NCBI GenBank assembly: GCA_017467335.1 | Contig: JAFTSJ010000027.1 | Span: forward strand, 109-64,108 | Direction: 5' to 3' | Source of the DNA: Alphaproteobacteria bacterium | GTDB taxonomy: Bacteria > Pseudomonadota > Alphaproteobacteria > CAAHEQ01 > UBA3637 | DNA: 64,000 bases | Shown here: positions 3,861 through 60,998 of the stretch, piece by piece | Layout of the letters: the number at the start of each line of letters is the position of its first letter | How positions within the stretch are numbered: the stretch's first letter is position 1 | Position numbers and translations under genes: made by a program | Notes under the pieces: model-generated | What the model saw: only the letters and a program-made list of their open reading frames with translations | Database searches by the model: none | Told to the model about the DNA's origin: nothing

Positions 3861-4346
3861 CTATGATTTTTTAAAGACCATAGCACTGAATAATGCTTGC
3901 GAAACAACTTTTCCGTCAACCCGAGCTTCCCCTCTGAACTTAAAGACATTTCGGACGGATTGTTCCTTTTTAACGGTAAATTCAATCACATCCCCCGGTA
4001 AAATCGGTTTGCGGAATTTAACTTCATCAACTGTCATAAAATAAACACTGTTACCGCCTCGTTCTTCTTCGGGGAAGGACATTAAAACAATAATACCGGC
4101 TGTTTGAGCCATGGCTTCGATTTGTAATACCCCCGGCATAACCGGATTTTCAGGAAAATGACCCATAAAAAACGGTTCATTCATCGTAACATTTTTAATC
4201 CCGATACCGGATTCCCCCGGAATAACGTTTTTCATTTTATCAACCAGTAAAAACGGATAACGGTGTGGTAATAATTTTAAAATTTGATGAATGTTAATTT
4301 CTTCTACAAAATTATCCGGTTTTGTTTCTTGCATTTCTTCTGTCAT
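3861..4346 (-). CDS. fabZ: 3-hydroxyacyl-ACP dehydratase
   Basis: 161 aa with hot-dog fold motifs LLPHRYPFLLVD and FFMGHFP..PVMPGVL. Confidence 0.95.
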   Translation of the reverse strand: MTEEMQETKPDNFVEEINIHQILKLLPHRYPFLLVDKMKNVIPGESGIGIKNVTMNEPFFMGHFPENPVMPGVLQIEAMAQTAGIIVLMSFPEEERGGNSVYFMTVDEVKFRKPILPGDVIEFTVKKEQSVRNVFKFRGEARVDGKVVSQALFSAMVFKKS

Positions 4347-4376
4347 AATTAACCCTTTCTTTTCGTATTTATAATT

Positions 4377-5393: not shown

Positions 5394-5402
5394 TTGATAT
5401 CC

Positions 5403-6080: not shown

Positions 6081-6082
6081 GA

Positions 6083-8350: not shown

Positions 8351-8383
8351 TTTTTATCCTCTAATATTCAAAATTAAACCGTC

Positions 8384-9481: not shown

Positions 9482-10329
9482 TAGAATAAAACGCCCCCAT
9501 CGTTAAAATAACATATTATCAAAGCCGTAACAACTGAAGCAAACAATAATCCGTCAACCCGATCAAACAATCCGCCATGTCCGGGTATTAAATTGCTGGA
9601 ATCTTTTAGATTTAAACGCCGTTTGATGTAAGATTCGAAAAAGTCTCCGATTTGTGAGACAATAGCTAAGATTCCGGCTGATGAAACCAAAACGAATACC
9701 AGTTGGTTAAACGTAACGGTACTTTCCGGTAATAAATAATTGTATGCTTTCAGATAAAGAGCAAATCCATAAGCAACTAACATTGCAAATAAGATGGCAC
9801 CGGCCAGACCGGACCACGTTTTTTTGGCACTGATTTTAGGAGCCAGTTTAGGGCCTTTGACTGTTTTCCCGACTACATATCCGCCAATATCCGTAGCCCA
9901 TACAACGAAAAATAACCATAAAACAATTTCACGGCTGATTCCTTCGTTAACATAATAAATATAACCCAGTGACAAAATGGGCAAACAAATATAAAGTGTT
10001 CCCAATGAAAAAGCCAACCGACCATCTGTTTTCCAATATACAATAGTTAAGCCCAGTAAGGACAACCATAAAGCAAATCCCGGATTGCCTTCTGTCAAAA
10101 AAGCAACCAAACAGGCAAACAATGCCATAATAACGGTATTTGATGTCACTTTTTTATCAAACATAATGCTCCATTCCCAAGCAAGACCAACGCCGAATGT
10201 AGCTAATAGAATTGTATATAGCGGGATGGAATAAATTTCATAGAAAAATTTTCCGAACCAAATACTTCCCAAAACCAACGGAGCTAATACAACCGCTGAT
10301 ATTGTTCTTAAAAACAAATTTGAATGCAT
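9481..10329 (-). CDS. cdsA: Phosphatidate cytidylyltransferase
   Basis: Polytopic membrane protein carrying the CdsA signature SYIKRRLNLKDSSNLIPGHGGLFDRVD. Confidence 0.93.
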   Translation of the reverse strand: MHSNLFLRTISAVVLAPLVLGSIWFGKFFYEIYSIPLYTILLATFGVGLAWEWSIMFDKKVTSNTVIMALFACLVAFLTEGNPGFALWLSLLGLTIVYWKTDGRLAFSLGTLYICLPILSLGYIYYVNEGISREIVLWLFFVVWATDIGGYVVGKTVKGPKLAPKISAKKTWSGLAGAILFAMLVAYGFALYLKAYNYLLPESTVTFNQLVFVLVSSAGILAIVSQIGDFFESYIKRRLNLKDSSNLIPGHGGLFDRVDGLLFASVVTALIICYFNDGGVLF

Positions 10330-15088: not shown

Positions 15089-15165
15089 GGGGGTGTAGCT
15101 CAGCTGGTTAGAGCGCCTGCCTGTCACGCAGGAGGCCGAGGGTTCGAGTCCCTTCACTCCCGCCA
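15089..15165 (+). tRNA. tRNA-Asp (GTC)
   Basis: Cloverleaf folded by eye: acceptor GGGGGTG/CACTCCC, anticodon loop CTGTCAC, T-arm GGTTCGAGTCC, encoded CCA end. Confidence 0.93.
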
Positions 15166-17392: not shown

Positions 17393-17475
17393 AGGGACAA
17401 AAAATAGAGTTGTTTTTAAGATAAAAATATGATAAATTATATAGGAATGTGTCATGGATGATTGAGGAGAAAAAT

Positions 17476-31271: not shown

Positions 31272-32246
31272 ATGAATAAGAAATATATTGAAGAAATTGA
31301 CGACCTGAACGCTAATGAACAAATTCACGAACCCTCTGTTAAGAAGCCTAAAAATATACGGCGAATCATGCGAACGTTTTTTATCGGATTTTTGTCTGTT
31401 TTGTGTCTTGTTGGGATTGTGTTGATTCATAAACTACATAAGGATTCTCAAAAACATCCTTCAACAGGGGTGACCCACTTCAATCGAATTGTCAATACAA
31501 AATTGCCGGTTTTGGCTCAACCGATAAAAAGTATATCATCATCGGTTAAGTCTTTGGAAACGGTTAATCAGCCGGCTTTTCCCGTTACACAAGAACCGGC
31601 TTTTCTTTCACCAACGCCATCAGCCCCATCATCAGATAATATATCGGAATTGACAACACCGACCGATACACCGGCCGTTGCGTTGCCTGTATCTGACAAA
31701 ACAGACGCAAAACAGGTTGCCATACCTGTAAAAAAAACAGATTATACGTTACAAAGTGCTTTGATTTTTAAAGAACATTTTTTAAAGGGTCTTCCTTGTG
31801 TTCAAGATTATCAACGTCTTTTATCGGCTCAGTATAAAACACCTGAAATGATGACGGTTTTGAATAATTTATCTCCGTATTGTGCCAGTGAAACAGGTGT
31901 TCGGCAAAATATCAAAGATATTTTTTTGAAAGAAAAGAAACGTTCTTTAATTGCCGGTTATGAAATGAAAAATGCAAAGTGGTTGGCGTATGTTAAAGCA
32001 TTGGTTGTTTCCGTCATTGAAATTCGTAAACTGAATCCGACAACGTCTAAGCCAAAAGATATTATTTATCAAGCTCAAAATGAATTATACCACCAAAATA
32101 TTCGTCAAGCCGTTGCTTTATTGAAAACATTACCGCCTCATATGCAAGATGCCATGAGTCACTTTTTTCGAGAAGCAGATATTTACATTCGGGCGGATGA
32201 CAGTTTGAATAAATTGATTTTATCTTTTGAACATGCAGGAGAATAA
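31272..32246 (+). CDS. Membrane-anchored protein with a mitofilin-like C-terminus (alphaproteobacterial Mic60-like)
   Basis: N-terminal TM (FFIGFLSVLCLVGIVLI), a P/S/T-rich linker, and a C-terminal helical segment (...QAQNELYHQNIRQAVALLKTLPPHMQDAMSHFFREADIYIRADDSLNKL). It sits directly upstream of a HemY-like gene. Confidence 0.55.
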   Translation: MNKKYIEEIDDLNANEQIHEPSVKKPKNIRRIMRTFFIGFLSVLCLVGIVLIHKLHKDSQKHPSTGVTHFNRIVNTKLPVLAQPIKSISSSVKSLETVNQPAFPVTQEPAFLSPTPSAPSSDNISELTTPTDTPAVALPVSDKTDAKQVAIPVKKTDYTLQSALIFKEHFLKGLPCVQDYQRLLSAQYKTPEMMTVLNNLSPYCASETGVRQNIKDIFLKEKKRSLIAGYEMKNAKWLAYVKALVVSVIEIRKLNPTTSKPKDIIYQAQNELYHQNIRQAVALLKTLPPHMQDAMSHFFREADIYIRADDSLNKLILSFEHAGE

Positions 32247-32248
32247 AT

Positions 32249-33436
32249 ATGCTTAAATTGATTATTATCTTTGCTTCATTATTTTTTGTCGGTTATCTGA
32301 TTGTAAATGATTATTGGACCATTACGGTTACAGGTTTTGGGTATGAAGTGACTGTATCAACTGTTTTGCTTTTGGTTGTCGGTGTTTTATTGGCTTATTT
32401 GGTACATGTTATCAAAAAACCGTTTCGGGTATTAGGTCGTTTTCGTGGGCGAAGAACATTATCGCAACAAAATAAACGGGAAACATATTTTTTTGATATT
32501 ATCAAAACCGTATTGGAAGATAGTCCGGCTCAACGACACCTTCTTTTTAAACAGGCCGGTCAATTTGTCGATAAAAAAACATATCGATATGATTTGATTG
32601 AAGCTCTTTTAAAACCAAATAAGGCTGTTTTTGAAAAATTGACACAGCAATCAGAAACACGATTAGCCGGTTTACATGGATTGTATGAAGAACAATCCCG
32701 TAAAGGAAATATGAAAGAAATGGGGCATATTTTAGATAAGGCATTAGTTCATCATGCTGATGTTCCATGGGTTATTCAAGCTAAATTCAATTTGTTATTA
32801 CAAGAAAGTGATTGGGAAAATGCGGCACACTATTTGGAAATTTTAAAGAAAAACAATTTAATTTCCAAAGAAGAATATCAAAAAGGTTATGCCGGATTAC
32901 TTTATAAAAATAATAAAATAAAGGCGGCTTATGAAGCCGATAAATCAAACCCGACATTTGCAATTGCATATGCACGAGAAAATCCGGCAAAAGCGGCAGA
33001 TATTTTATATACCTCCTGGCAATTAACACCGTGTTGGGAAACATACTGTCATTATATGGATGTTTATAAAGATGAAACGCCGACAAAACAGATGAAAGCG
33101 TTGAAACGGTTAACGGCTAAAAATCCGACAAGTCGTTTGTCGTTGTTAATTGCTGTTGACACATCCATTCGTTTGGAATTATGGCGGGATGCCAAAGAAA
33201 CAATGGAAGTTTATATGCAAACATATCCGTTGACAAAACAGGCAGCTGATTTGATGGCTACTATTGTTCGTAAAGGATGGCATCACGAAGAAGAAGCCCG
33301 AGAATGGGAACAAAAAACCGTTGAAACAGATGATAAACATGGTTGGACATGTAGCCATTGTCATCAAGAAACATATGGTTGGGACATGCTTTGTCCGCAC
33401 TGTAATCGGTTTGGTACAGTTATATATAACAGGTAA
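32249..33436 (+). CDS. HemY-N domain/TPR protein with a C-terminal zinc ribbon
   Basis: Two N-terminal TM helices with the HemY_N pattern, a helical repeat body, and C-terminal WTCSHCHQETYGWDMLCPHCNRFG. Confidence 0.7.
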   Translation: MLKLIIIFASLFFVGYLIVNDYWTITVTGFGYEVTVSTVLLLVVGVLLAYLVHVIKKPFRVLGRFRGRRTLSQQNKRETYFFDIIKTVLEDSPAQRHLLFKQAGQFVDKKTYRYDLIEALLKPNKAVFEKLTQQSETRLAGLHGLYEEQSRKGNMKEMGHILDKALVHHADVPWVIQAKFNLLLQESDWENAAHYLEILKKNNLISKEEYQKGYAGLLYKNNKIKAAYEADKSNPTFAIAYARENPAKAADILYTSWQLTPCWETYCHYMDVYKDETPTKQMKALKRLTAKNPTSRLSLLIAVDTSIRLELWRDAKETMEVYMQTYPLTKQAADLMATIVRKGWHHEEEAREWEQKTVETDDKHGWTCSHCHQETYGWDMLCPHCNRFGTVIYNR

Positions 33437-33441
33437 TCAAG

Positions 33442-34374
33442 ATGACACAACAAAATTTTCCACGTGTAACAATTGTAACGGTTGTTCTTAATTTAATTCA
33501 AAATAATCGAGAAGATATGTTTCGCAGATGTGTTCAAAGTATTCGTCAACAAACGTATCCTCATATTGAACATATTGTTATTGATGGAGCCTCTACGGAC
33601 GGAACGGTTGAATTACTTCAATCAATGGGGTTAACTTTTTTTTCAGAGAAAGATACCGGCATCTATGATGCGATGAATAAAGGGATTTTAAAAGCAACAG
33701 GTCAATATATTGCTTTTATGAATTCTGATGATTACTATGCTTCGCCGACAGCCGTTGCTTCCATGGTACAAAAAATGGTTGAAACGAATGCAGACGGAGC
33801 CTATGGTCGAGCCTACATTGTTGGTCGTCCCGGAAAAAAAGATTTATTGAAATCATATTGGATAGGACAGGCTTTTTATCGTATGCCGGTTTGTCATCAA
33901 GCCTTTTTTTGTACGGTTGCTTCGCTAAAAGAACAAGGATTATTTGATACATCATTTCGAATAGCCGGCGATTATAATTCTATTTATAAAATGGTTATGA
34001 ACGGTAAGTTAATTGTTCCCGTGCAGGAAAAAATTGCCTGTTTTGTTTTAGGTGGTATTTCAACTCAACTTATTCAAAAATCCAAGGATGAAAGTATTCG
34101 AGTTATTGAAAATAATTTAAATATACCTTTATCGGTGGCTCAAACAATTGCTCAAAACAAATATGTGCCGTTTCGGTTATATCGACAGTTAAGAAAACGG
34201 CTTCATCCCAAAATGGTATCAGCATTTGACTATGTCTTTTTAAAACAACTTTTGTATCGATTTATTCATTCTGTGGCAACCATTCATTTAAGAAAAGGAT
34301 CACGATACATTCAATTGTTTGGAATACGTATTATCGGTCAAAATAACCCAACAACTCGGATTGAAAAGGAATAG
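33442..34374 (+). CDS. Family 2 glycosyltransferase
   Basis: VTIVTVVLN....SIRQQTYPHIEHIVIDGASTDGT and NSDD (DxD-like). Confidence 0.85.
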   Translation: MTQQNFPRVTIVTVVLNLIQNNREDMFRRCVQSIRQQTYPHIEHIVIDGASTDGTVELLQSMGLTFFSEKDTGIYDAMNKGILKATGQYIAFMNSDDYYASPTAVASMVQKMVETNADGAYGRAYIVGRPGKKDLLKSYWIGQAFYRMPVCHQAFFCTVASLKEQGLFDTSFRIAGDYNSIYKMVMNGKLIVPVQEKIACFVLGGISTQLIQKSKDESIRVIENNLNIPLSVAQTIAQNKYVPFRLYRQLRKRLHPKMVSAFDYVFLKQLLYRFIHSVATIHLRKGSRYIQLFGIRIIGQNNPTTRIEKE

Positions 34375-37004: not shown

Positions 37005-37775
37005 ATGCCATTTGACAGTGAAGGAAATTTTACACGGATTCACAGTTGGGAAGATGACCGTGTAAACGGAATTGAAATTGTAACGGAAAGACATGATGAA
37101 GAAGACGATAATTTTGCCGCCGGATTTAATGAAACATTTTTGCGAGATGGTCGTGTTGCCATGACCGGTGTTATAGATATGGGTGGTTATAAAATTCAAA
37201 ATTGTGGAAAAGGTGTTATTGGTACAGATTTAATTACCAAAGACCAGTTAACGGATAATGTGATAACAACAACCAATAATTTGATGTTAGTTGGTGATAT
37301 AAAGGCATCTGTTATTCCATATAACCATTCATGTTGGTTATTGTGTAACGGGCAAGCTGTTTCAAGAACGGAATACAGTGAATTATTTTCTTTGATTGGA
37401 ACAACATTTGGAGCCGGTGATGGTGTTACAACATTTAATATTCCGAATTATCAAGGAAAATTTTTGCGAGGATTGGGAGGGGATAGTGCAGGCAGTATTG
37501 CAGAAACCCAACAAGAAGGATTACCGAACATTTACGGACGAGCCGGTATCGGTATTCAAGAAAATTTGGCACCTTTTGATATTTCGGCAGCAAACGGTTC
37601 ATTTTACAATGCCGGTGTTACAGGTGTTAATAAAGCCCATTATCCGGATTGGCAGGTTCAATCATATTATCTTGATTTTGATGCATCTCGTGTCAGTCAT
37701 ATTTACGGGGCCAGCACGCATGTTACACCGGTCAATCAAGCTGTTTACTATTTTATAAAAGCCAAAAATTTATAG
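37005..37775 (+). CDS. Phage tail-collar-domain fibre protein
   Basis: WLLCNGQAVSRTEYSELFSLIGTTFGAGDGVTTFNIPNYQGKFLRG is the canonical Phage_Tail_Collar motif. The N-terminus (F.R...W..D...G..I....HD.EDDNFA.G....L.RDG...MTG..DMGG.KI.N) is typical of tail-fibre N-termini. Confidence 0.85.
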   Translation: MPFDSEGNFTRIHSWEDDRVNGIEIVTERHDEEDDNFAAGFNETFLRDGRVAMTGVIDMGGYKIQNCGKGVIGTDLITKDQLTDNVITTTNNLMLVGDIKASVIPYNHSCWLLCNGQAVSRTEYSELFSLIGTTFGAGDGVTTFNIPNYQGKFLRGLGGDSAGSIAETQQEGLPNIYGRAGIGIQENLAPFDISAANGSFYNAGVTGVNKAHYPDWQVQSYYLDFDASRVSHIYGASTHVTPVNQAVYYFIKAKNL

Positions 37776-37783
37776 GAGGAAAT

Positions 37784-38137
37784 ATGACAAGTCGTATTAC
37801 ATCTACATCAATTACTGTAACACAGGGTGATTCTTTACCGATTTTATTAACTTTTAACCAAGATATTACCGGTGCTGTTATTACAATGCAAGTTCGCAAT
37901 GATGACGATAAGCTGATATTAAGTAAAACAGTGACGGAACATTTAAATCCACTCAAAGGAGAAACACTTTTAAATTTAACGCCTAAAGAAACATCTGTTC
38001 CTGTTGGTATATATCGAACGGATATGGAAATTACGTTTTCAGATGGAGCTAAATATACCTTTTATCCGCCTCAAATCGGTAAAACGGCCTGTTTTCATGT
38101 GACAACGCAAATTACACGAGAGGATGGTTTAATATGA
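37784..38137 (+). CDS. Small all-beta (Ig-like) phage tail accessory protein
   Basis: 117-aa ORF, 8 nt after the collar gene and overlapping the next gene by 4 nt. The beta-strand-rich sequence resembles BppU-N/Ig-like fibre adaptor domains (weak). Confidence 0.5.
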   Translation: MTSRITSTSITVTQGDSLPILLTFNQDITGAVITMQVRNDDDKLILSKTVTEHLNPLKGETLLNLTPKETSVPVGIYRTDMEITFSDGAKYTFYPPQIGKTACFHVTTQITREDGLI

Positions 38138-39597
38138 TAAGATTAGCAAATGAAACAGATATTGTCCCCCAACATGAACTTGTCGTTGATATAAAACCAC
38201 AAAATGAAGTTCATGTAACGGTTGGGGCACTTCATTGTGTTTTACAAACCGATGCGGTTTGGGTTCGTAATGGTGAAAAAGAAGTTCAATATTATGTTGA
38301 TACGGTTGTTAAACCGGAATTGAATCAAATTATTACGCAAGGAAAAGATGATTTTCAGCATATTATTTCGGAAGAAACAGATGAATTAAATCAATTGCTT
38401 GTGGACAATAAAGAATCGTATCAATCTTTTACTGATGAACAAAAAGATTTTTTTAATGCAAATGTACAAGAACAAACATCACAATTTAATCAACATGTGA
38501 TTTCTCAACAAAATATGTTAGATAATCATATTCTGGAAATTGAAGATACCTTTAATCAAAAACAATCTGATATAGAAGTATTGGCAGAACAAGTTGCTCA
38601 AAATACATCTGAAACGGCACAAAATACCGTTAAGACACAACAATATGTTGAACAATCTTCTCAATCGGCTCAAACAGCCCAAACAGCTGTTCAATCTGTT
38701 CAAGCAATACAAACCGATATTGGTCAAATCAAGAACGAAACAATATCTGTTTATGAACAGACCGTTGAACAGATTGATTTAGCCGCTGATTACACATTGA
38801 AAGCTCAACAATCAGCCCAAACGGCAACAGACAAATTAAACGAGGTTCAAACCTATGTTCAAGAAGCATCTCAATCAGCTCAAACAGCATTAACGGCTCA
38901 ACAATCAGCTCAAGACAGTTTACAACAAATGCAAATGTTGATGGATGATACGGTTACGGTAAGTGGCAATCAAATAATTACAGGTCGTAAAACATTTATA
39001 ACACCTCTTTATCGACAATCTGAAGAATTTGATTCAACTCAAAACAGCGTAGCGAACTACACTGCTGAGCCAATAGCCCAAGCAACGGACAAATCCGGTC
39101 GTTGTTTTATGAATTTGCAATATGGGAAAGAAACAAATGGAACATTGTTTGGACGATTGTCATTAAGTCGTTTAGTTAACGGTGCCACTCATGAACATTC
39201 TTTAAATATGGGGATTTCCAATGAGGGAATTGGTTTTATTCAGTGTCTATCACCTCAACCGGAAAGTAATTCAGCCGATATTGCCACAACACAATGGAGC
39301 AGGAATACCATTCGGGATATTACATTTCCTGATTGGGCAACATGTGTTGAAATTTCAGGAACGGGACAAAAATATGCCCCATATGACGGTGTTTTAATTG
39401 TCACACCGGAAGATCAAGGAGAATCTTGTTTTACAATGATAATCGGTGTTCATGAATATAATTTAGCTCAAGAATATTTTGGTGCAGACTATGGCCATAC
39501 GGGGTATGGTTTTTTCCCAATGAGAGCAAATTTACCTTATTCAATTACGCATATGTTCGGTTGTTATTGTCGGTTTTTCCGTTATATAGGAGGATAA
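38134..39597 (+). CDS. Phage tail-fibre protein (Q/A/S-rich coiled-coil shaft plus C-terminal globular domain)
   Basis: Repeats SQSAQTAQTAVQSVQ and SQSAQTALTAQQSAQ, followed by the fibre motif VSGNQIITGRKTF and about 210 aa of C-terminal domain. Confidence 0.75.
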   Translation: MIRLANETDIVPQHELVVDIKPQNEVHVTVGALHCVLQTDAVWVRNGEKEVQYYVDTVVKPELNQIITQGKDDFQHIISEETDELNQLLVDNKESYQSFTDEQKDFFNANVQEQTSQFNQHVISQQNMLDNHILEIEDTFNQKQSDIEVLAEQVAQNTSETAQNTVKTQQYVEQSSQSAQTAQTAVQSVQAIQTDIGQIKNETISVYEQTVEQIDLAADYTLKAQQSAQTATDKLNEVQTYVQEASQSAQTALTAQQSAQDSLQQMQMLMDDTVTVSGNQIITGRKTFITPLYRQSEEFDSTQNSVANYTAEPIAQATDKSGRCFMNLQYGKETNGTLFGRLSLSRLVNGATHEHSLNMGISNEGIGFIQCLSPQPESNSADIATTQWSRNTIRDITFPDWATCVEISGTGQKYAPYDGVLIVTPEDQGESCFTMIIGVHEYNLAQEYFGADYGHTGYGFFPMRANLPYSITHMFGCYCRFFRYIGG

Positions 39598-39981
39598 ATG
39601 AAAAAAATTATTGTACATTATGATTTGGAAACAAAAACGTGTGATGTTGCAGACGTAACACCGCAAAATACATTGTTGTTTCCCGATAAACCAATTGTTG
39701 AATGTGGTCAAGATTGGCGAGGTTGGTGGTATAAAGAATCTGAAATACCATCAAAGCCTGTAACTGTTCTGGAAGAAGAAGTACGAAAAAAAAGAGATAA
39801 TTATTTAAAAAAATATGTCGATTGTATTCAATTGGTATTACGATGGGAAACATTAACATCATCGGAACGCGAACAATATCGATTATATCGACAATATCTT
39901 TTGGATATTCCGCAACAAGCACAATTTCCGCAAATAACCGTTTTAACGTTTGACGAATGGTGTCAACATCCGTCAATTTGA
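39598..39981 (+). CDS. Tail-fibre assembly chaperone-like protein
   Basis: 127 aa, directly abutting the fibre gene. The C-terminal pattern RWETLTSSEREQYRLYRQYLLDIPQQAQFPQ resembles Tfa/DUF4376-type chaperones. Confidence 0.55.
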   Translation: MKKIIVHYDLETKTCDVADVTPQNTLLFPDKPIVECGQDWRGWWYKESEIPSKPVTVLEEEVRKKRDNYLKKYVDCIQLVLRWETLTSSEREQYRLYRQYLLDIPQQAQFPQITVLTFDEWCQHPSI

Positions 39982-40128: not shown

Positions 40129-42006
40129 GTGTTTAACATTGGAAAGATAAACCATAAATTTTTGATGATTGGTTTAGGACTTGTATGTCTGATAGGGGTT
40201 GGTTATTTCAGCCCCTCGTTGCGATTAGATACGATAACGCCCAATCATCATGAAAATTTTATTAAGCAAATTTCCAAACAGCATTTTTCGGATGCGGTTG
40301 TTTCCACTTTTCCGGATTATGATTATCATTTGTCTGAAATGGCTCAACGGGCATTAAGTGTCTATACCAATTCAGAAAATATCCATGTTATCGTTCGAAC
40401 GGATTTGTCTGTCAGTCATGAAGATACGGTTCGCCGAGATGTTTTCCCTGAAACATCGGTGATTCGCCGTCAATTGACGACAACACAAGAAAATAATGTT
40501 GTGATTAAAGATGCGACATACGATTATTCTACCGTTACAACAAAAACGCAAGCCTATTATTATCATATTAAAAAGATGAATGTATTGATTTTTTTGACAC
40601 AACATCAGCAATCATCGCTTGTCTTTGATAAATCTAAAATTCAAGAAATTATACAAACATCAATCGGATATGATATAAATCGAGGCGATTTGTTGCGGTT
40701 GATAGAAATACCGCATTCAATCAGTCATATGACCTTTACAAATAATCGTAACATACAAATTCGACAAATTTTTGCCATTATTTTTATGTGTTTGTTGGGT
40801 ATTCTTATTGTTAGTGGTGTTTTGATACCGCTATGTATTTCATTGGGACGTAAGCAACCGGTTATGTGTCAAAAAGCATTTGCACAAAAAGATGGTTATC
40901 ATCATCAAATCGTTGGACATATGGAAGAAAATTTAATTTTAAAAGCCCAAGATTTGTGCATGCGTATGCCCGAAGCAGCCGTTAATATCCTACGTAATTG
41001 GTTGTCATGGGAAAATCGTAAAAATAAAGAAAACGGCTCTTTTTCACCGGCTCAAAAGGCTGCCATTGTTTTACTGTGTTTGGGAGATAATTGCATTCGT
41101 CATTTGTTTAAAAAAATGACGGACACTGAAATTTTTTCTTTATCTCGTTTAATGGCTTCATTGGGTCAAGTTAAAGCCATAGAAATTCAACCGATTCTTT
41201 TATCTTTTTGTCATTCTATGAATGAACCGCAGGATATTCGAGAAACGAAACCGTTGATTGAAACAGTGATAAGAAATACGTTGCCGATTGATAAAGCGGC
41301 TGTTTTGTTAAAAGAATTGAAAATTCAAACGACACAAAAAACAATTTGGGATAAAGTTAATCAAGTACCGACTTCTCATTTAAGTTCTTTTTTATTGCAG
41401 GAATATCCGCAAACATCAGCTGTTATTTTGTATCACTTGACAACGGAAAAAGCCGCAGCGGTTTTGGCGGAAATGGATGCAAAAACAGGGGCTCAAATTT
41501 TATTAAGGTTAAGTTCTTTGCAATATATGGATAAAAATAATATTCATATGATTGAATTGAATTTAGAAAAACAAATAGATTCATTGATGAAGCGGGTCAA
41601 TGGTGTCGGGGAGAAAAAAGCCTCGGCCATATTAAGTTTGCTTGACAAAAAAACACAAGGGCGTTATATATCGTCATTAGAACGATTATCTCCGCAAACA
41701 GTTGGTGTACTTGAAAAAAATATTTTGAATTTTGATGATTTGGCTCATTGGCATTCTAAGGATTTAATTATCTTATTAAAGCACATTGACAATCAAACAT
41801 TGGTTTTGGCTTTATCGAATGCTCGTAATGCGACAAAAGAAGCGTTTTCTCGGGTTATTTCACCTCAAAAATGGAGTAAAATGCTAAATCAAATGCGACA
41901 AATGCCAATCGGTAAAATAGAAGATATTGATATGTCACAACGAGCCGTTATTCGTATTGCTCAACAATTGATAGAAAGTAAAAAATGTAAAGGAACAATA
42001 ATATGA
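40129..42006 (+). CDS. Natural FliF(shortened)-FliG fusion protein
   Basis: GTG start behind an AGAGGA RBS. Order of parts: TM1; a periplasmic part of about 185 aa ending KIQEIIQTSIGYDINRGDLLRLIEIP (the FliF motif that precedes TM2); TM2; the FliF tail motif EAAVNILRNWLSW; then a complete FliG (AAIVLLCLGDNCIRHLFKKMTDTEI..., EYPQ, C-terminal domain). Confidence 0.8.
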   Translation: MFNIGKINHKFLMIGLGLVCLIGVGYFSPSLRLDTITPNHHENFIKQISKQHFSDAVVSTFPDYDYHLSEMAQRALSVYTNSENIHVIVRTDLSVSHEDTVRRDVFPETSVIRRQLTTTQENNVVIKDATYDYSTVTTKTQAYYYHIKKMNVLIFLTQHQQSSLVFDKSKIQEIIQTSIGYDINRGDLLRLIEIPHSISHMTFTNNRNIQIRQIFAIIFMCLLGILIVSGVLIPLCISLGRKQPVMCQKAFAQKDGYHHQIVGHMEENLILKAQDLCMRMPEAAVNILRNWLSWENRKNKENGSFSPAQKAAIVLLCLGDNCIRHLFKKMTDTEIFSLSRLMASLGQVKAIEIQPILLSFCHSMNEPQDIRETKPLIETVIRNTLPIDKAAVLLKELKIQTTQKTIWDKVNQVPTSHLSSFLLQEYPQTSAVILYHLTTEKAAAVLAEMDAKTGAQILLRLSSLQYMDKNNIHMIELNLEKQIDSLMKRVNGVGEKKASAILSLLDKKTQGRYISSLERLSPQTVGVLEKNILNFDDLAHWHSKDLIILLKHIDNQTLVLALSNARNATKEAFSRVISPQKWSKMLNQMRQMPIGKIEDIDMSQRAVIRIAQQLIESKKCKGTII

Positions 42007-44450: not shown

Positions 44451-44476
44451 GTCAAAAAAACGTCCCTTTTTTTGAC
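44451..44476. repeat. Hairpin repeat copy 1 (GTC-A7-CGTCCC-T7-GAC)
   Basis: Read directly: gtcaaaaaaacgtccctttttttgac. Confidence 0.8.
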
Positions 44477-44579
44477 ATAATATTTCATATCATTTCGTTT
44501 GTCAACTAAAATTTGTAATTATTTGATTTTTAATTATTTTTTCATTTTTAAAAAAGTGTACCCCTTACCAAAAAAAAGC

Positions 44580-44605
44580 GTTCAAAAAAGGGACGTTTTT
44601 TTGAC
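44580..44605. repeat. Hairpin repeat copy 2, in inverted orientation relative to copy 1
   Basis: gttcaaaaaagggacgtttttttgac equals the reverse complement of copy 1 at 24 of 26 positions. A 103-nt AT-rich spacer lies between the copies. Confidence 0.8.
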
Positions 44606-44658
44606 ACATTTTTGAAAAATAACCGTCTGATTTTATTAACTTTTAAAATGGGGGTTCT

Positions 44659-47391
44659 ATGGAAATTTTAAACGCTTTTTTAAACGGATATTTTAAACAA
44701 AAAAATGCTGAAACCGGACGCAGTATGGTGGAAATGCTGGGCGTTTTAGCAGTTATCGGTGTTCTTTCAATCGGCGGGATTTATGGTTACACCTTTGCGA
44801 TGGATAAATATCGAGCAAACGATATTGTGTATGAAGTCAATCTGCGTGCCAATGATGTTTGGCATAAATATCAAGAACAACCCCTGCCTGATCCCAGTGA
44901 AGACGGCACGGATTTTGACGAATTTCCGGATACAACGGGAACGGGTTATCCGATTTACATGACATCACACCCCGATGTTGCTTTTAAAACATATGTTGAA
45001 GGTGTTTCTTCCCGTGTATGTAAAAATGTTGTGAACATGAACTTAAACGGTGTTATTCAAGGCATACAATTTGTGCAGGTTGCCCAAGGGGACGGGGATT
45101 TAGTCAAATATACAGGCAGTGCGTCGATTTGTGGGGAAGAAGAAACAGATAATACACTTGTTTTTACATCATTTTTGGATTCTGAAAGTAATGAAGGCGA
45201 AGGTCAAAGTGGTGACCCATGCGTTGAAGAAGAAGATTGTAATATGTTGTGTGCTCCCGTTACATGTGAAGACGATATGACATGTCATAACAGTTGTACA
45301 GGAACCTCAACACCATTTTGTTATGATAATGACAGTGGCGGTATTTGTGTTGAATGTTTAAGTAATAAAGATTGTCCAAATGAACAAATTTGTGATTTAA
45401 CGAAACATGAATGTGTGGCATTGCCTGAATCATGTGGCGAGGGCGACCGCTATGGCAAAGAATATCGGGCAGCAAATGGATCGTGTGTCAGTTGTGATTA
45501 TATGAGCGAAATTATCATCATGAACTCGGATGATAATGACGGTATTTTTGAAAAACAAGTTGGTAGTGTGTCTATTAAAGATACACATAGTGGAATAGAA
45601 ATGTGTCAAGCGTGTGCTTCGATTCAACACCGGATTGAAGAAGCAGGGACGGGCGATAACATTAAAACCTATTGTGCCACCGGTTGTATTAAAGGCAATA
45701 GTTTTTTAAGTAAAACAAGTGGTTGTATTCCATGTAATTCTTTAACGGAGATAGCCATTCCGAATGAGGATCAAGCACGATTACAATGTACGGCTTGCAC
45801 CAATCGGGTATGGTTTCGGGAAAATACGAGTCCTAGTGCGGATTATATCTGTGTTTTACGTACTTGTCCTGATGGTTATTTCAAAAATCATACCGGAAAA
45901 TGCCGTAAATGTGTCATAAACGGTTGGCCAAGCGATCAGGATTTTTACAATGCCATTATATGGTTTTCTTATTTAGGTACGTCTGCCGGTAATTTGGCAG
46001 AAGAATGGTCTGAAGGGTGTTTGCAATGTGCTAATGCAACTGATCCAAAACTGCGTAAAAAATATCAAGTCGTAAAACAAGGTAGTTCTTATGTTTGTAC
46101 AGATGTATGTGGTCCTAACCAATTCCAAGATTCAGCAGGAAATTGTTACGATTGTAATACGGAGGAAGCCCCCGGATTGGGAACATTTTCTGGGTGGGTA
46201 AGTGGTATGAAATCATGGTTAGTCAATTTATGCACATCCTGTACAACGGCAAAACGAGAAGTGCAAGATGGTAAATGTGTTAAAGTAGGTGATAGTGATT
46301 GTTCTTCAGAACCCGTGCCATCATTTATGGGAACAGATTATACATGTTATCCATGCACACACAATGCCCGTGTTCAGGTATTTACAGATGCCAACAAAGA
46401 CGGTGTTGATGATTACGGTGGGTGTACTTCCGTTTGTGGTGAGGATAAGCGATTTATGCTAAATGGCTATTGTTATAAAAAATGTGATGCAAATCAGGTT
46501 ATGAGTGTGTGGGGAGCCTGTCAAGACTGTTCTAAAATAGGATTGTCCTATAAGATTGGTGAAGGAAGTAATCCTCCTATTGTAGATGAATTATGCCGAA
46601 CGGCTTGTGGTAAAGGCACTCATGATGTTTATTCATGTGATTATATCTATTGTGCCCCAACAGATTGTGGTGAGGGGCGATTACATACATTGTTAAATGA
46701 TTATAATGGACCATGCGACAAGTGTCCGACAGCCAGTTCAAAATCAATTAACGTCAGATCAGATAATGCAACATTTAAAGCCGAATGTGAAGCCTGTGGA
46801 AATCATGCGTTTATCAATCAATATTGTGTTTATATGAATCCCAGTCAATCAGGCATTTGTAACAGTGATAGTCCAGATACAACCAAATGGTCGAATTATA
46901 CAGCCGGTATCGGCGTCCTTTATCGGGATAATACAGGTGTTTGTCGTCGTTGTGATGATCAAAGTAATTCATATGCGTCAACACAAACAGAATGCGAAAG
47001 TTGTATTGTAAATGGTGTTCAAATTCGTCGTTGGGTTGGAGGCAGTTGTGTCTATGGCGGTTGCAGTGAAGGTGATACATTCAGAACAGCAAATGGGTGT
47101 ACCAGTTGTACCACAAATGCCATCAAAGTTGCCACAACGGGACAAGATGCCGACTTGCTTTGTAATGCGTGCCATCGGCGAATTATGACAGATGTGAATG
47201 AAATAAAATATTGTGTTCAAAAATGCGATTCGGATGAATGGCAAGATATTAACGGCGACTGTTGGGGCGCAGAAACGGATGTCGGTAGTAATGAAATCGG
47301 TACGGATGAATTATCGGCTCAATTATGCCGAAATGTATCACGAACACCCAATAAAGATACCGCAACAGGAAAAGTGTATTGTCAACAATAA
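44659..47391 (+). CDS. Giant prepilin-leader protein with furin/VSP-like CxxC cysteine-rich repeats
   Basis: N-terminus MEILNAFLNGYFKQKNAETG|RSMVEMLGVLAVIGVLSIGGIYGY, with G at -1, E at +5 and a hydrophobic helix. The remainder contains 17 CxxC motifs in alternating C(P/G).G.(Y/F)....G.C..C and C..C units. Confidence 0.85.
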   Translation: MEILNAFLNGYFKQKNAETGRSMVEMLGVLAVIGVLSIGGIYGYTFAMDKYRANDIVYEVNLRANDVWHKYQEQPLPDPSEDGTDFDEFPDTTGTGYPIYMTSHPDVAFKTYVEGVSSRVCKNVVNMNLNGVIQGIQFVQVAQGDGDLVKYTGSASICGEEETDNTLVFTSFLDSESNEGEGQSGDPCVEEEDCNMLCAPVTCEDDMTCHNSCTGTSTPFCYDNDSGGICVECLSNKDCPNEQICDLTKHECVALPESCGEGDRYGKEYRAANGSCVSCDYMSEIIIMNSDDNDGIFEKQVGSVSIKDTHSGIEMCQACASIQHRIEEAGTGDNIKTYCATGCIKGNSFLSKTSGCIPCNSLTEIAIPNEDQARLQCTACTNRVWFRENTSPSADYICVLRTCPDGYFKNHTGKCRKCVINGWPSDQDFYNAIIWFSYLGTSAGNLAEEWSEGCLQCANATDPKLRKKYQVVKQGSSYVCTDVCGPNQFQDSAGNCYDCNTEEAPGLGTFSGWVSGMKSWLVNLCTSCTTAKREVQDGKCVKVGDSDCSSEPVPSFMGTDYTCYPCTHNARVQVFTDANKDGVDDYGGCTSVCGEDKRFMLNGYCYKKCDANQVMSVWGACQDCSKIGLSYKIGEGSNPPIVDELCRTACGKGTHDVYSCDYIYCAPTDCGEGRLHTLLNDYNGPCDKCPTASSKSINVRSDNATFKAECEACGNHAFINQYCVYMNPSQSGICNSDSPDTTKWSNYTAGIGVLYRDNTGVCRRCDDQSNSYASTQTECESCIVNGVQIRRWVGGSCVYGGCSEGDTFRTANGCTSCTTNAIKVATTGQDADLLCNACHRRIMTDVNEIKYCVQKCDSDEWQDINGDCWGAETDVGSNEIGTDELSAQLCRNVSRTPNKDTATGKVYCQQ

Positions 47392-57066: not shown

Positions 57067-57720
57067 ATGATTAAATTTTTGTGTTTGTTAGCGGTGTTTA
57101 TGATTGCAACGCAGGCAACGGCTCAAAATACGGATGGATTGTTTCCTGAATTGGCTTCACGGAAACGACCTGTTCAAGAACAAAAACAAGATCAACCGGT
57201 TGTTTCGTCATTGTTTGATGAGGAAAGTGAGCAAGAAGCTGAAACACGGCAAAATGAAGCTATCCGTTCTGCATTAAGCGAACCGGATGGTAACTTTGAT
57301 GATGCCTTACAACAAGGGGGGCAAAATCAAGCACCGACAGTCAGTAAAGCTGAACAAGGCTTTTTTATTTTTAAGCCCAGTAATGTTCAAATTGTGACAC
57401 CGACAATTGCTCGCTTTCAATTTTGTACATCACATTTAACTTTATCAAATTATTCAGACGGTAATTTAAAAACATTAGGTGTTGTTTTTGAATATACGCC
57501 GATTGTCCTGCCATATACATACACCAATATCAATATGGGTGACCAAAAAACAAATGTCTTATCGTTAGGTGGGGAAGCATGTCAAATGTTACGGCGAATA
57601 CCGAATATTAAGATAACGAAATGTGAAGCAACTCGTATCGTTGAAAAAAATGGTCAGAAGACGGAAGAACCTATTTCAGAAGAAGAATGCAAATCAAAAG
57701 TTAAATTCGTGATGAATTAA
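57067..57720 (+). CDS. Secreted hypothetical protein
   Basis: Signal peptide MIKFLCLLAVFMIATQATA|Q, an acidic low-complexity N-terminal half, 4 Cys in the C-terminal half. GGGAGG RBS. Confidence 0.6.
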   Translation: MIKFLCLLAVFMIATQATAQNTDGLFPELASRKRPVQEQKQDQPVVSSLFDEESEQEAETRQNEAIRSALSEPDGNFDDALQQGGQNQAPTVSKAEQGFFIFKPSNVQIVTPTIARFQFCTSHLTLSNYSDGNLKTLGVVFEYTPIVLPYTYTNINMGDQKTNVLSLGGEACQMLRRIPNIKITKCEATRIVEKNGQKTEEPISEEECKSKVKFVMN

Positions 57721-57721
57721 C

Positions 57722-59422
57722 ATGAAACGATTTTTGGTTTGGATATGTTGTTGTTTTGTTATGGTATGTGTGGTTTCTACGGAAGCCACATCTTCCGTTC
57801 AATTAAAGAAAACAGATGTTCAAATTCTTAAAAATGTTTTTTCATTACACCGTCAAGGGCAATATAAAAAAGCATCGGAACAAGCTAAAAAAATTCAAAA
57901 TCCTGTTTTAAACGGGTATGTTTTGTTTCATAAATATATGAGTGCCCGATATAATACAAAAAAATCAGAAATTGAGCAGTGGCTGAAAAAATACGGTGAT
58001 TTAGCTGTTGCTCCGGAATTATATGCGTTGGCAAAACGAAAAAACATGTCTTTAAAAACACCTAAACCCAAAGATGTTTTATATGGGGGGCAATCAAAGG
58101 CTTGTTCTTATATTCGTCGAGATGAACCCATTGATTTAATTCGTAAAAGAACTTTTTCAGAATTATCGGGTGAAAAGCAAAAAAAAGCCCGTCAATCTTT
58201 TAAAAAATTGCGACAATATATTGTAAAAGGCGAAACGTTGAATGCGAAAAAATTGATAGAAAGTCGTGATTTTCAGTCACTACACCAAGACAAAGACATG
58301 GCGTTGGCTCATACGGTGTTGGCTTTTTCGTATTTTTTAGATGGTCAGTTCGGATTATCTTTATCACAGGCTGAAAAAGCAATTGGGAGAGATGCCTTAT
58401 CAACACCGTTGGCATATTGGACGGCCGGTTTGGCATCGTGGCAGTTGGAAAATTATCGAAAAGCAGCTCAATATTTTTCACAAACGGTATCTCATGCAGA
58501 TATTTATCCTTTATTAAGAAGCAGTTCTGCTTTTTGGGCGGCTCGTTCTTTTTTAAAAACAGGGTCGTATGATAAAGTAGGGGATTTATTGGATATTGCT
58601 TCTCAACAGCCTGATACGCTTTATGGTATGTTGGCTATGCACATGTTGGGAATGCCCATCAGTTCGATTTGGAATCGTCATTTAATTATTCAAAAACAAA
58701 AAAGCATTCGTTTTTCACATCCGGCATTGAATCGTTTTTATACATTAAAACAAATAGGACAAGATGAATGGGCGACCAAAGAATTAACAAAATTGTATTT
58801 AGAATCTGAAGATAAAACAAAGAAAAAATTATTGCATATATCTCAAAAACACGGATTTGAAAATGAATTGATTGATTTAGCGGGTGTGTCCGGTCATAAA
58901 AACGAACGTTTCCCGTTACCTCAATGGAAACCGATAAACGGTTGGCAATTGGATAAAGCTTTGGTGTATGCTTATGTTCGTCAGGAATCATGTTTTAATC
59001 CGTCTGCCAAAAGTGCAGTCGGGGCTCGGGGTGTTATGCAGATAATGCCGGCAACGGGGCAATATATGGCTCAAAAAAACAATATGAAGTGGAGTTTAAG
59101 CCGAATGGAAAACGTTTCATATAATTTATCATTGGGTCAATATTATTTAGAATATTTAATGAAATTACCGGTTGTTTCAGATAATTTGATTTATTTAGCC
59201 GTTGCTTATAACGGTGGTCCCGGTAATCTTACCAAATGGAAACGTCAAATTAAACAAACGACTGATCCATTGATGTTTATTGAAAGTATTCCATCTCGTG
59301 AAACACGCAGTTTTGTTGAACGAATTATGGTGAATTATTGGGTGTATCGTTCTTTAACGGGACAATCTTTTTCAACGATGGATGATATCATAGCCGGTCG
59401 TTGGCCATTGTACGTGCCGTAA
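57722..59422 (+). CDS. slt: Soluble lytic murein transglycosylase (Slt70-like)
   Basis: Signal peptide, a superhelical N-terminal region, and an SLT catalytic motif with the Glu in VRQESCFNPSAKSAVGARGVMQIMPATG. Confidence 0.88.
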   Translation: MKRFLVWICCCFVMVCVVSTEATSSVQLKKTDVQILKNVFSLHRQGQYKKASEQAKKIQNPVLNGYVLFHKYMSARYNTKKSEIEQWLKKYGDLAVAPELYALAKRKNMSLKTPKPKDVLYGGQSKACSYIRRDEPIDLIRKRTFSELSGEKQKKARQSFKKLRQYIVKGETLNAKKLIESRDFQSLHQDKDMALAHTVLAFSYFLDGQFGLSLSQAEKAIGRDALSTPLAYWTAGLASWQLENYRKAAQYFSQTVSHADIYPLLRSSSAFWAARSFLKTGSYDKVGDLLDIASQQPDTLYGMLAMHMLGMPISSIWNRHLIIQKQKSIRFSHPALNRFYTLKQIGQDEWATKELTKLYLESEDKTKKKLLHISQKHGFENELIDLAGVSGHKNERFPLPQWKPINGWQLDKALVYAYVRQESCFNPSAKSAVGARGVMQIMPATGQYMAQKNNMKWSLSRMENVSYNLSLGQYYLEYLMKLPVVSDNLIYLAVAYNGGPGNLTKWKRQIKQTTDPLMFIESIPSRETRSFVERIMVNYWVYRSLTGQSFSTMDDIIAGRWPLYVP

Positions 59423-59428
59423 AAGAAT

Positions 59429-60037
59429 TTATTTTAAAAATGAATTGAGGATATCAATTGTTTCTTGCGTATGAGTTGTTGTAAAGGTTGTCATGCCTAG
59501 ATGATGATAAATATCCGTGACGTCTTTTGCCTTGTCAATTAAAATACAATCTTGATACGTTAATTGATGTTTTTTCAGATAGGCAACAAAAAAAGGGTAA
59601 TTGTTATTTTCATCTTGTTGTGTTTTTAAAAAGCCGACTTCGGCAGAAGAAATATAATCATCAAAATAATCTTCCAAATGAAGGTATGGATATAAATAAT
59701 TACCGAAAATATCAACGTGATTTGTGGCGATAACCACTTTGTATCCGTACCGGCGTACTTGTTGAATAAGTGATAATAATTCCGCTTCAACGGTAATATT
59801 TGACATCCAATTCATTGTTTGTGTTTGAATGACTTCTTTGGGAATCCCATAGGTGTTTAAATGATGCCAAATATTACAAAACGATACACGTCCGGTTAAC
59901 CAATCATTTTTCAAAGGTGTATCTAAAACATGTTCTTGTAAAAATTGAAATAACGAATGGTTTTGTGTTTCCAAATGATGCCATATCGGTTGATAGGAGA
60001 GCGTTTGAAACCAATTGATGAAAATAACTTTGTTCAT
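59429..60037 (-). CDS. HAD-like fold protein with a degenerate motif I
   Basis: VIFINWFQTLS occupies the place of the DxDxT motif. VVIATN and LIDKAKD resemble HAD motifs II and IV (weak). Confidence 0.4.
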   Translation of the reverse strand: MNKVIFINWFQTLSYQPIWHHLETQNHSLFQFLQEHVLDTPLKNDWLTGRVSFCNIWHHLNTYGIPKEVIQTQTMNWMSNITVEAELLSLIQQVRRYGYKVVIATNHVDIFGNYLYPYLHLEDYFDDYISSAEVGFLKTQQDENNNYPFFVAYLKKHQLTYQDCILIDKAKDVTDIYHHLGMTTFTTTHTQETIDILNSFLK

Positions 60038-60147
60038 AAGCCCTCCTTTTATATCTATATCCGTCCCATATTTTCAGTGTATCATACTTCCTTTAAAAGT
60101 CAAGGCGGATTATCATGTCGTTTTAATCAAGACGTATTGATTAGAGA

Positions 60148-60717
60148 TTAGTTTTCATTTTTTATTTTAGCAAATATATTTAAATCACGGTACATACGAA
60201 ATTGATTACTCCAACAGGAATGGCGTAGTGTTCCTTCTAATCGATAACCGCTTTTAATAGCTAAATTACGAGCACCGTAATTTTCAATATCACTGCGAAT
60301 CATAATGCGTTCAAATTCTAAAAAGAAAAATTCTTTTTCAATCAAACGCAAAGCTTCACGCATAAATCCACGGCGAGAATAGTCTTTGGCAATCCAAAAA
60401 CCAACTTCAACGCTTTTATGTTCCGGATAGGGTTGATAAACCCCGATAACGCCAATCAGTTTTGATGAACGTGTTTCGTAAATTAAATACTCAAACGCAT
60501 ATTGTGATTTCCATTTTTCAACCATGTTTGTTAAATGAACAAAAGCATCTTCCGGAGAACCGGTAATCATTTTATCTGCCATGTCAACCCACGGTAGTAA
60601 ATATTTACGATTTTTATCAACTAACTGATATAAAGCATTGGCTGTTTCAAATGTTGCCATGGGCTTATGTAGTTGTATGCGGTCACTTTCTAAAACAGTT
60701 CTGGGTTCAAATAACAT
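60148..60717 (-). CDS. GNAT acetyltransferase, RimJ/RimL-like
   Basis: 189 aa with the RRGFMREAL acetyl-CoA motif and the typical RimJ-type layout. Confidence 0.75.
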   Translation of the reverse strand: MLFEPRTVLESDRIQLHKPMATFETANALYQLVDKNRKYLLPWVDMADKMITGSPEDAFVHLTNMVEKWKSQYAFEYLIYETRSSKLIGVIGVYQPYPEHKSVEVGFWIAKDYSRRGFMREALRLIEKEFFFLEFERIMIRSDIENYGARNLAIKSGYRLEGTLRHSCWSNQFRMYRDLNIFAKIKNEN

Positions 60718-60957
60718 CTTTTCTCCTTTGGTTAGACAGGTTAAACAAACAAGGGATATATTCCTGTATGTGAATATAACTATATGTTATCTAAAAATCC
60801 AGTAAAAAAGTTAAAAATTTTAAAAAATATATATCATAAGTTGTTTTTTACAATTTTAAGTTGTTTAAAATATGGTAAAAAAAGCAATATATCAGGTTAA
60901 TATCATATTTTTTTTACATCTGAAACATGCTATTGTAATCATAACAAATCAAATAAT

Positions 60958-60996
60958 AAAAAACCACATCATTTTGGATATGATATGGTTTTTTTT
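60958..60996 (-). terminator. Rho-independent terminator of the RND pump gene
   Basis: aaaaaaccacatca ... tgatatggtttttttt hairpin (one mismatch), directly after the stop at 60999-61001. Confidence 0.7.
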
Positions 60997-60998
60997 AT

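Follow-up and report, generated by a model that had tools for sequence, protein, structure and literature searches.

Large pilins that carry more than a filament-forming domain are known from several type IV pili. TcpB of Vibrio cholerae (423 amino acids, aa) and CofB of enterotoxigenic Escherichia coli (ETEC) are large type IVb minor pilins, present as one per pilus, with the N-terminal 25 residues and the glutamate at position 5 (E5) shared (PMC5207764). Both have large extra beta-rich domains, are located at the pilus tip in low abundance, and initiate assembly or mediate binding (PMC5207764, PMC8179133). Modular pilins, of which PilB and PilC of Streptococcus sanguinis are examples, numbered over 1,200 proteins and 264 architectures, up to one of 860 aa with 12 repeats, in a survey that required a match to IPR012902 (N_methyl) (Raynaud et al. 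2021, PMC8179133). Here we analysed a 64-kb stretch of DNA (hereafter the window) from the metagenome-assembled genome (MAG) IJY58, an 'Alphaproteobacteria bacterium', in which one gene (44659-47391) encodes a 910-aa cysteine-rich protein with a pilin-like N-terminus. A preliminary description of this gene had held that pilins normally measure 100-200 aa and that such an architecture had not been described; neither statement stands beside modular pilins of up to 860 aa (PMC8179133) or TcpB (423 aa) and CofB (PMC5207764). We conclude, with a probability of about 0.62, that the product is a type IVb minor pilin of modular design. It is most likely a variable adhesin displayed on a pilus, as opposed to a eukaryote-derived protein of the furin or variant surface protein (VSP) type.

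A pilin module behind a class III leader

The open reading frame (ORF) was confirmed as 910 codons on the + strand, beginning with ATG, and its mature product has about 890 aa. The N-terminal features were as follows.

44659..47391, + strand: whole gene, 910-aa modular type IVb pilin-like protein (GenBank MBQ9090116.1, IJY58_03615, 'hypothetical protein')
44659..44718, + strand: leader peptide, residues 1-20 (19-20 aa), ending in the invariant G20 at -1 (alignment of relatives)
44719..44802, + strand: mature N-terminus R1-S2-M3-V4-E5 and hydrophobic alpha1-N helix, residues 21-48, in register with TcpA, CofA and type IVa pilins
44719..45183, + strand: pilin module, residues 21-175, comprising a long alpha1 helix, a beta sheet of four strands and a pair of conserved cysteines (AlphaFold2 model, Foldseek, Cys conservation)
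45184..45219, + strand: acidic, low-confidence linker, residues 176-187 (SESNEGEGQSGD), with a predicted local distance difference test score (pLDDT) below 50 at residues 176-184

The protein begins with MEILNAFLNGYFKQKNAETG, which ends in NAETG before the cut, and continues as RSMVEMLGVLAVIGVLSIGG, placing G20 at -1 and E25 at +5. The prepilin-type leader with these two residues and a hydrophobic helix, as proposed earlier, was therefore borne out, and both residues were invariant, as were about 60 cysteines, in 75 aligned full-length relatives. Across 96 leader-bearing N-termini from 23 assemblies the string G-R-S-M-x-E-x-L-G did not vary. The length of the leader in relatives was 5-84 aa, counted to the most upstream Met of complete ORFs, and reached 114 aa when cut ORFs were counted. 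A literature search for the leader motif string found no paper. When a profile of the 96 N-termini was compared with all PDB chain sequences, it matched full-length TcpA (E 9e-4), the CFA/III pilin CofA (E 0.05) and type IVa pilins (E 0.1-2.4). All of these matches shared one register, in which the Glu of the profile aligned with pilin E5 and its Arg with residue 1 (TcpA, CofA, PAK, FimA, PilA).

The predicted structure agreed with this register. An AlphaFold2 model built from the 75-sequence alignment (pLDDT 84.2, predicted template modelling score 0.70) showed a long helix at residues 34-70 packed onto a sheet with strands at 98-172. In a Foldseek search of the PDB, TcpA (3hrv_B, probability 1.00) and the ETEC CFA/III type IVb pilin (9iuf_A, probability 0.99) were the sole confident matches of the full model, and CofB appeared at rank 46. 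Thyroglobulin and megalin had the top E-values for the full model and were set aside as Cys-rich noise at a probability of 0.15. C121 and C158, present in 90% or more of the 96 pilin modules compared, form a putative D-region disulfide. On sequence and model, residues 21-175 are a pilin module homologous to TcpA/CofA-type pilins, lying behind a class III leader. The type IVb subclass fits best, because the leader is long and variable and the +1 residue is Arg in place of Phe, and because the best sequence and fold matches are TcpA and CofA.

A six-cysteine repeat without known relatives

Cysteine makes up 8.0% of the protein (73 residues). The 17 CxxC motifs counted previously were all recovered, compared to 6.0 +/- 2.3 in 2000 shuffles of the mature part, in which 17 was the maximum and was attained at most once. 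They had been described as eight double-CxxC modules of two alternating unit types; we found instead ten homologous six-Cys modules preceded by a 13-Cys knot.

45220..45411, + strand: Cys knot or stalk, residues 188-251, with 13 Cys and the 17th CxxC (sub-threshold match to TIGR04201 Myxo_Cys_RPT)
45412..47388, + strand: ten tandem six-Cys modules M1-M10, residues 252-910 (family alignment, module profiles, fragment model of pLDDT 88.6)

Each module spans 55-87 aa and follows the pattern C1-x3-10-C2-x11-27-C3xxC4-x13-36-C5xxC6. Both CxxC motifs are kept in seven modules (M1-M4, M7-M9), the second becomes Cx3C in M5 and M6, and the degenerate last module, M10, has neither and retains C1, C2, C3 and C5 only. 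A hidden Markov model (HMM) built on one module across the family detected other modules (the M9 HMM found M2 at 27 bits; the M7 HMM found M2, M3, M8 and M9 at 17-21 bits), and the modules are thus true repeats. Their cysteine positions were invariant and the sequence between them was hypervariable among paralogues. The models place C3xxC4 within a beta hairpin and C5xxC6 where a short helix ends. Where relatives had lost cysteines, C2 was lost together with C3 (5/5, 2/2 and 3/3 cases) and C4 together with C6 (2/2), a pairing that suggests three disulfides per module (C1-C5, C2-C3, C4-C6) rather than Zn(Cys)4 sites. The total number of cysteines is odd, and Cys660 (46636-46638) occurs in only 3% of family members; it may be a free thiol or take part in an extra lineage-specific disulfide, possibly with C908. 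In an exhaustive HMMER scan of 1.84 billion representatives the module profile matched 88 proteins, nearly all of the same bacterial family or fragments of its members, a few of which had an ordinary Sec signal in place of the pilin leader. As so few proteins carry matches, the module is a narrow bacterial invention.

The preliminary description had likened these repeats to those of furin, VSPs and ciliate antigens, and had suggested an ectodomain of eukaryotic type, acquired from protist or host surface proteins or mimicking them. The superficial pattern C-(P/G)-x-G-x-(F/Y)...G-x-C-x-x-C invites this comparison, as does the CxxC richness that a gut organism here shares with Giardia VSPs, and R-spondin Fu1-Fu2 and IGF1R were among the noise-level Foldseek matches (probability <=0.07). 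However, Pfam scans of the window protein and 10 representative relatives (11 members, E<=10) matched none of the Furin-like, GCC2_GCC3, VSP, EGF or Paramecium antigen families, and a three-module profile found no EGFR, IR or furin chain among PDB sequences at E<=10. Foldseek of the repeat fragment modelled at pLDDT 88.6 yielded nothing significant in the PDB (best E 0.68), with R-spondin Fu1-Fu2 at a probability of 0.06 and a template modelling score of 0.22. The modelled modules also differ from all-beta Fu repeats in having an alpha helix that bears the second CxxC, and the restriction of the module profile to 88 proteins, essentially of one bacterial family, likewise argues against a eukaryotic source. 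A failure of profile searches to link the repeats to such domains is the outcome that the preliminary description had itself named as refuting this part. By sequence and predicted fold the proposed homology is refuted at the level at which homology can be detected, neither eukaryotic origin nor host mimicry is supported, and we give this explanation almost no credence; resemblance of the modules to VSPs would be at most convergent. Alternatively, the paired CxxC motifs of each module might together bind zinc as a Zn(Cys)4 site, in the manner of a zinc ribbon or GATA finger, making the ectodomain a metal-binding or redox array. The CxxC-x17-CxxC spacing of several modules, a sub-threshold DUF951 match at residues 817-850, and the identity of the best PDB matches of the three-module profile (GATA zinc fingers and the aIF2-beta zinc ribbon, E 0.18-1.2) would be in keeping with such a site, but none of the zinc-finger matches was significant. 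Cysteines were lost as C2+C3 and C4+C6, never as the C3-C4-C5-C6 quartet, and of that quartet M10 keeps only C3 and C5, a pattern that fits disulfides but no site with four ligands. Unlike in treble-clef fingers, the second CxxC is modelled where a helix reaches its C-terminal end, and the location is extracytoplasmic. Zinc binding is accordingly improbable, if less so than descent from a eukaryotic repeat.

Paralogues, promoter cassette and pilus genes

A database search returned 272 relatives, all unnamed proteins of uncultured Alphaproteobacteria from animal and human guts. Scanning one genome per GTDB species for GRSMVE[IM]LG gave at least 594 leader-bearing stretches, 576 of them confirmed by tblastn. 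All of the matches listed lay in alphaproteobacterial MAGs from the gut, the sources being buffalo, sheep, roe deer and rabbit as well as humans (Nepal, Hadza, Brazil). In 80 fetched loci we counted 115 leader-bearing ORFs of 120 to more than 1600 aa, in which the share of cysteine climbed with size to 8-10%. The smallest class (120-157 aa, mature part below 200 aa) had about 1.6% Cys and a C-terminal Cys pair, and its members are candidate major pilins judging by sequence. Two MAGs carried at least 16 (SIG53) and at least 15 (CANQUX) leader-bearing genes. At least seven family ORFs were present in the IJY58 MAG; contig ends truncate six, which are deposited as partial (MBQ9089509, 9089546, 9089616, 9089920, 9090282, 9090626), since the conserved 5' cassette and pilin module evidently break short-read assemblies; copy numbers in MAGs are therefore underestimates. 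A precomputed PF27011 assignment for relative P0118 was not reproduced by hmmscan at E<=0.01.

The family is large and diversifies rapidly, and paralogues within the IJY58 MAG were strongly conserved at one end and divergent in the middle. Three of them had the pilin module, at 85-93% identity to that of the window protein, whereas all four shared only 25-53% in M2-M9 and 25-46% in M3-M7, in mosaic blocks, and M1 or M10 reached 81-87% in some. A relative from another sample, P0002, was likewise mosaic, with 91-94% identity over M8-M10 and 36-37% over M5-M6, and P0003, a putative orthologue, showed an even 54-72%. Genes for XerC/XerD-like tyrosine recombinases end 80-210 bp upstream of leader genes at two loci (L034:1201-2253, L046:8901-9920), and at a third (L041:9888-10391) such a gene lies 1.2 kb downstream on the opposite strand. 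These genes may belong to a housekeeping neighbourhood that is conserved, or they may have a bearing on recombination between paralogues.

The conservation extends upstream of the gene, where about 350 bp were some 90% identical at paralogues in unrelated neighbourhoods. This cassette contains the following elements, and the ribosome-binding site follows.

44451..44478, no strand: palindrome 1, TGTCAAAAAAA-CGTCCC-TTTTTTTGACA, in the conserved 5' cassette (sequence reading)
44580..44606, no strand: palindrome 2, GTTCAAAAAA-GGGACG-TTTTTTTGACA, operator-like, its centre 66 nt upstream of the ATG (sequence reading)
44650..44654, + strand: ribosome-binding site (Shine-Dalgarno) GGGGG, 4 nt 5' of the ATG (direct reading of the sequence)

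The two palindromes, of 27-28 bp and 129 bp apart, have reverse-complementary 6-bp cores. They belong to a class, CA(5-9)-N(4-8)-T(5-9)G, whose core is rich in GC (CGTCCC, CGTACG, GGATCC or CGATCG) and that occurs in several species about 100-250 nt upstream of the GRSMVE codons (L006, L007, L025, L035, L042, L045, L051, L065 and other loci). The motif was about 16-fold enriched 5' of leader-bearing genes, with 17 of 105 windows there compared to an overall rate of 0.010 per 300 nt, and the copies of a pair were about 130-135 nt apart in the window family and in L065. The arrangement could be taken for a phase switch, in which two inverted lox-like sites flank a promoter that a recombinase flips between ON and OFF: the reverse-complementary cores and the 129-bp spacing would suit this, and the best sigma-70-like match of the region (11/12) lies between the sites on the minus strand, facing away from the gene. 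Yet the inner segment had the same orientation in 4/4 informative contigs, the cores are self-palindromic in other subfamilies (CGTACG, GGATCC), so that the sites there have no orientation, these subfamilies often have one site only, and no recombinase adjoins the gene in the window. We therefore dropped the inversion hypothesis, which we hold to be very improbable; the palindrome is probably a shared operator, the more economical reading. Separately, tandem direct repeats of about 170 bp (CGTCATGCTGAATTTATTTCAGCATC...GGTGATGG...) were seen at L083:1250-1760, upstream of the conserved 5' cassette of P0002; one similar copy occurs in L085, and the repeat resembles a repetitive extragenic palindromic (REP) element or a miniature inverted-repeat transposable element (MITE).

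Genes for a type IVb pilus machine were present in five related genomes (L004, L013, L086/87, L088, L089). ATPase genes were detected at three loci when E. coli GspE served as the tblastn query. In L004 (MAG SIG53) and L013 (RGIG7750), T2SSF, a 704-710-aa T2SSE and PAP_PilO (the R64 PilO family) lay 5-6 kb from a family member. Homologues of this ATPase led to three further species with one conserved seven-gene operon (L086/87, L088, L089), in the order unknown (about 350-380 aa), TcpQ, Secretin, PAP_PilO, unknown (about 350-390 aa), T2SSE and T2SSF. Among NCBIfam models the secretin came closest, at E 1e-74, to TIGR02520, 'PilN family type IVB pilus formation outer membrane protein'; the fifth gene weakly matched PilP, and the unannotated genes did not encode polytopic membrane proteins. 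No pilS/T/U/V-like gene, pilin or peptidase was found within the operon, and no shufflon recombinase was seen. Searches by tblastn with E. coli GspD, F, G, L, M and C gave no match in the window and 89 loci. A guess from synteny that paralogue P0025 adjoined the pilus operon proved wrong, as gyrB is found there instead. The 116-aa product of a divergent gene next to the operon (L086:3243-3593, - strand, same coordinates in L087) has three hydrophobic segments and matches TrbC/VirB2 (conjugative pilin) in Pfam.

The window itself is an ordinary chromosomal segment of about 36% G+C. Positions 272-10329 hold lpxB/I/A/D, fabZ, skp, bamA and rseP, and ptsP, glk and mutS are also present; the lpx genes, bamA and skp mark the host as a diderm. 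Rfam and tRNA scans of the window found nothing beyond a tRNA-Asp at 15089-15165. Just 5' of the pilin-like gene lie the flagellar genes FliF/G, FlhF and FlhG, and an ankyrin protein and RsmB follow it. The FliF/G gene (40129-42006, + strand) is a single ORF of 625 aa with a FliF C-terminal match (residues 127-195) and complete FliG N, M and C domains (306-617), apparently a FliF-FliG fusion or a truncated FliF joined to FliG, with FlhF and FlhG following it. A phage-tail-like cluster (37005-39981, + strand) stands amid housekeeping genes, with no other phage genes seen nearby: its members are a tail collar domain protein at 37005-37775, a 487-aa protein that lacks annotation at 38134-39597 and, at 39598-39981, a tail assembly chaperone. 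A 590-aa MORN-repeat protein (15549-17321) directly precedes an ORF of 2065 aa (17449-23646, + strand), in which Pfam recognises no more than a short active-site stretch of Peptidase_M48 (residues 103-133), leaving ~1,930 residues without a recognised domain.

A proposed pilus-displayed head and its known counterparts

Display on a pilus is the best reading of these data because the protein combines a class III signal with a real pilin fold, and its clade has a type IV pilus machine. We propose that a prepilin peptidase would cleave the leader after G20, exposing the mature N-terminus R-S-M-V-E5, and that the hydrophobic alpha1-N would dock the protein into the pilus of the R64-like machine of the clade (TcpQ with a possible PilL, the PilN secretin, PilO, PilP, ATPase and platform). 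The body of the pilus would be built of the small leader-bearing pilins, with the giant protein inserted through alpha1-N and, given its bulk, most likely placed at the tip by analogy with TcpB, CofB and R64 PilV. The 720-aa C-terminal part would form an elongated array whose ten modules, each with three disulfides (C1-C5, C2-C3, C4-C6), provide a protease-resistant scaffold for loops that carry binding or antigenic specificity. Since the paralogues have almost the same promoter cassette, leader and pilin module yet diverge in mosaic central modules, they may be interchangeable heads for one pilus, generating adhesive or antigenic variation in the gut.

Several points weigh against this pilus-displayed head. 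The N-terminal methylation models PF07963 (N_methyl, Pfam) and TIGR02532 did not match the window protein at E<=1, and the best N_methyl score among family members scanned was 9.9 bits, in one relative, against a cut-off of 21.2. We know of no precedent for Arg at +1 of a prepilin. The search for pilus machinery that had been recommended at the outset was answered in part: a GspE-type ATPase, secretin, PilO and platform exist in related genomes, but neither tblastn with E. coli GspO nor a GxGDxK motif scan found an A24 prepilin peptidase in the window and about 1.25 Mb (89 loci), the scan picking up only XerC/D-like recombinases and a hydrolase. No pilus gene was found within the 64-kb window, where seven ORFs (31272-34374, 57067-63881) were covered by tblastn and motif search only. 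None of the five named ATPase matches falls in the accession range of the IJY58 MAG (about MBQ9089509-9090626), other matches being unaccessioned, and the main gap of the argument is that the pilus operon was located in sister genomes but, by accession range, not in this MAG. A mature subunit of 95 kDa would have to traverse the secretin, the suggested disulfides derive from few and possibly non-independent losses, and the expression, processing, polymerisation and binding of the protein are proposals drawn from sequence and models. As to the methylation models, their failure lies in insensitivity to a leader in which R-S-M replaces F/M-T-L, the motif itself being present; because these curated models miss it, the family has been annotated as hypothetical. 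The idea that the class III N-terminus is only an inner-membrane anchor or export signal, holding a periplasmic or surface Cys-rich protein that never polymerises and is perhaps released by a peptidase, would dispense with a pilus for this gene. It is favoured by the dozens of leader genes per genome (at least 16 in SIG53 and at least 15 in CANQUX), whose products range from 120 aa to over 1600 aa and whose number goes beyond the obvious need of a single pilus, by the distance of most of them from the pilus operon, and by proteins that bear the same Cys module behind an ordinary Sec signal. We nevertheless find it unlikely: E5, which matters for filament docking and not for anchoring, is invariant, as is the full alpha1-N register with polymerising pilins, and the complete globular pilin fold has been kept at 85-93% identity among paralogues, which implies selection on an assembly interface. 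Of the two parts of the preliminary proposal of a eukaryote-like ectodomain on a type IV pilus or type II secretion-like machine, then, the attachment to a pilus gains support from the pilin fold and the machine of the clade, while the eukaryote-like nature finds no Pfam, PDB or Foldseek link.

The design of a pilin carrier with a grafted module is already known (PMC8179133). New are the Arg(+1) leader subclass missed by current models, a six-Cys repeat without a profile relative in Pfam or NCBIfam or a fold relative in the PDB, the mature size of 890 aa, and a large expansion of paralogues with mosaic variation in uncultured gut Alphaproteobacteria. The hosts live in human and livestock guts, and if the paralogues are alternative pilus heads, they would constitute a bacterial multigene repertoire of adhesins or antigens on a type IVb pilus, bearing on how low-abundance commensals persist on the mucosa and strikingly convergent with the CxxC-rich variant surface proteins of protozoa. 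A bolder and more doubtful extension would be variation of VSP type, in which one R64-like machine displays a repertoire of giant tip pilins that evolve by head recombination and diversifying selection, convergent on Giardia VSPs, the Arg(+1) leader defining a new prepilin class with possibly its own processing enzyme. In practice, GRSMVE(M/I)LG is a cheap marker with which to annotate hundreds of 'hypothetical proteins', and the six-Cys module is a candidate new protease-resistant scaffold.

Among known systems, TcpB and CofB are the nearest in design. As in the window protein, a class III leader with E5 heads their type IVb pilin module, which a linker joins to a large extra part; they are much larger than the major pilin, and the closest fold and sequence matches of the window protein, TcpA and CofA, are their major-pilin partners. 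It differs in being about twice as large as TcpB (890 aa mature against 423), in its ten-module Cys-rich array, which has no similarity to CofB or TcpB domains, in its Arg at +1, and in being encoded outside the pilus operon with many paralogues per genome in place of one gene. With Giardia VSPs it shares a gut habitat, high Cys content, many CxxC motifs and membership of a multigene family whose targeting end is conserved while the Cys-scaffolded ectodomain varies. The parallel is one of function only, with no detectable sequence or fold homology to VSP or furin repeats; the VSPs conserve a C-terminal transmembrane-CRGKA tail, whereas the present family conserves an N-terminal pilin module and is of bacterial origin. 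Modular pilins likewise use a pilin module as carrier, with a short linker and a grafted functional module presented by the filament. The grafted module of the present family has no Pfam or NCBIfam signature, and the family was invisible to that survey because it fails the IPR012902/N_methyl match. The machine recalls the R64/IncI1 thin pilus, as the operon order in the clade mirrors pilL-M-N-O-P-Q-R (unknown, TcpQ-like, PilN-type secretin, PilO, PilP-like, ATPase, platform). In R64 the large minor pilin PilV is constant in its N-terminal part, and its binding specificity depends on which of the alternative C-terminal parts it carries; its variants arise by shufflon DNA inversion within one gene, whereas those of the window family are separate chromosomal paralogues.

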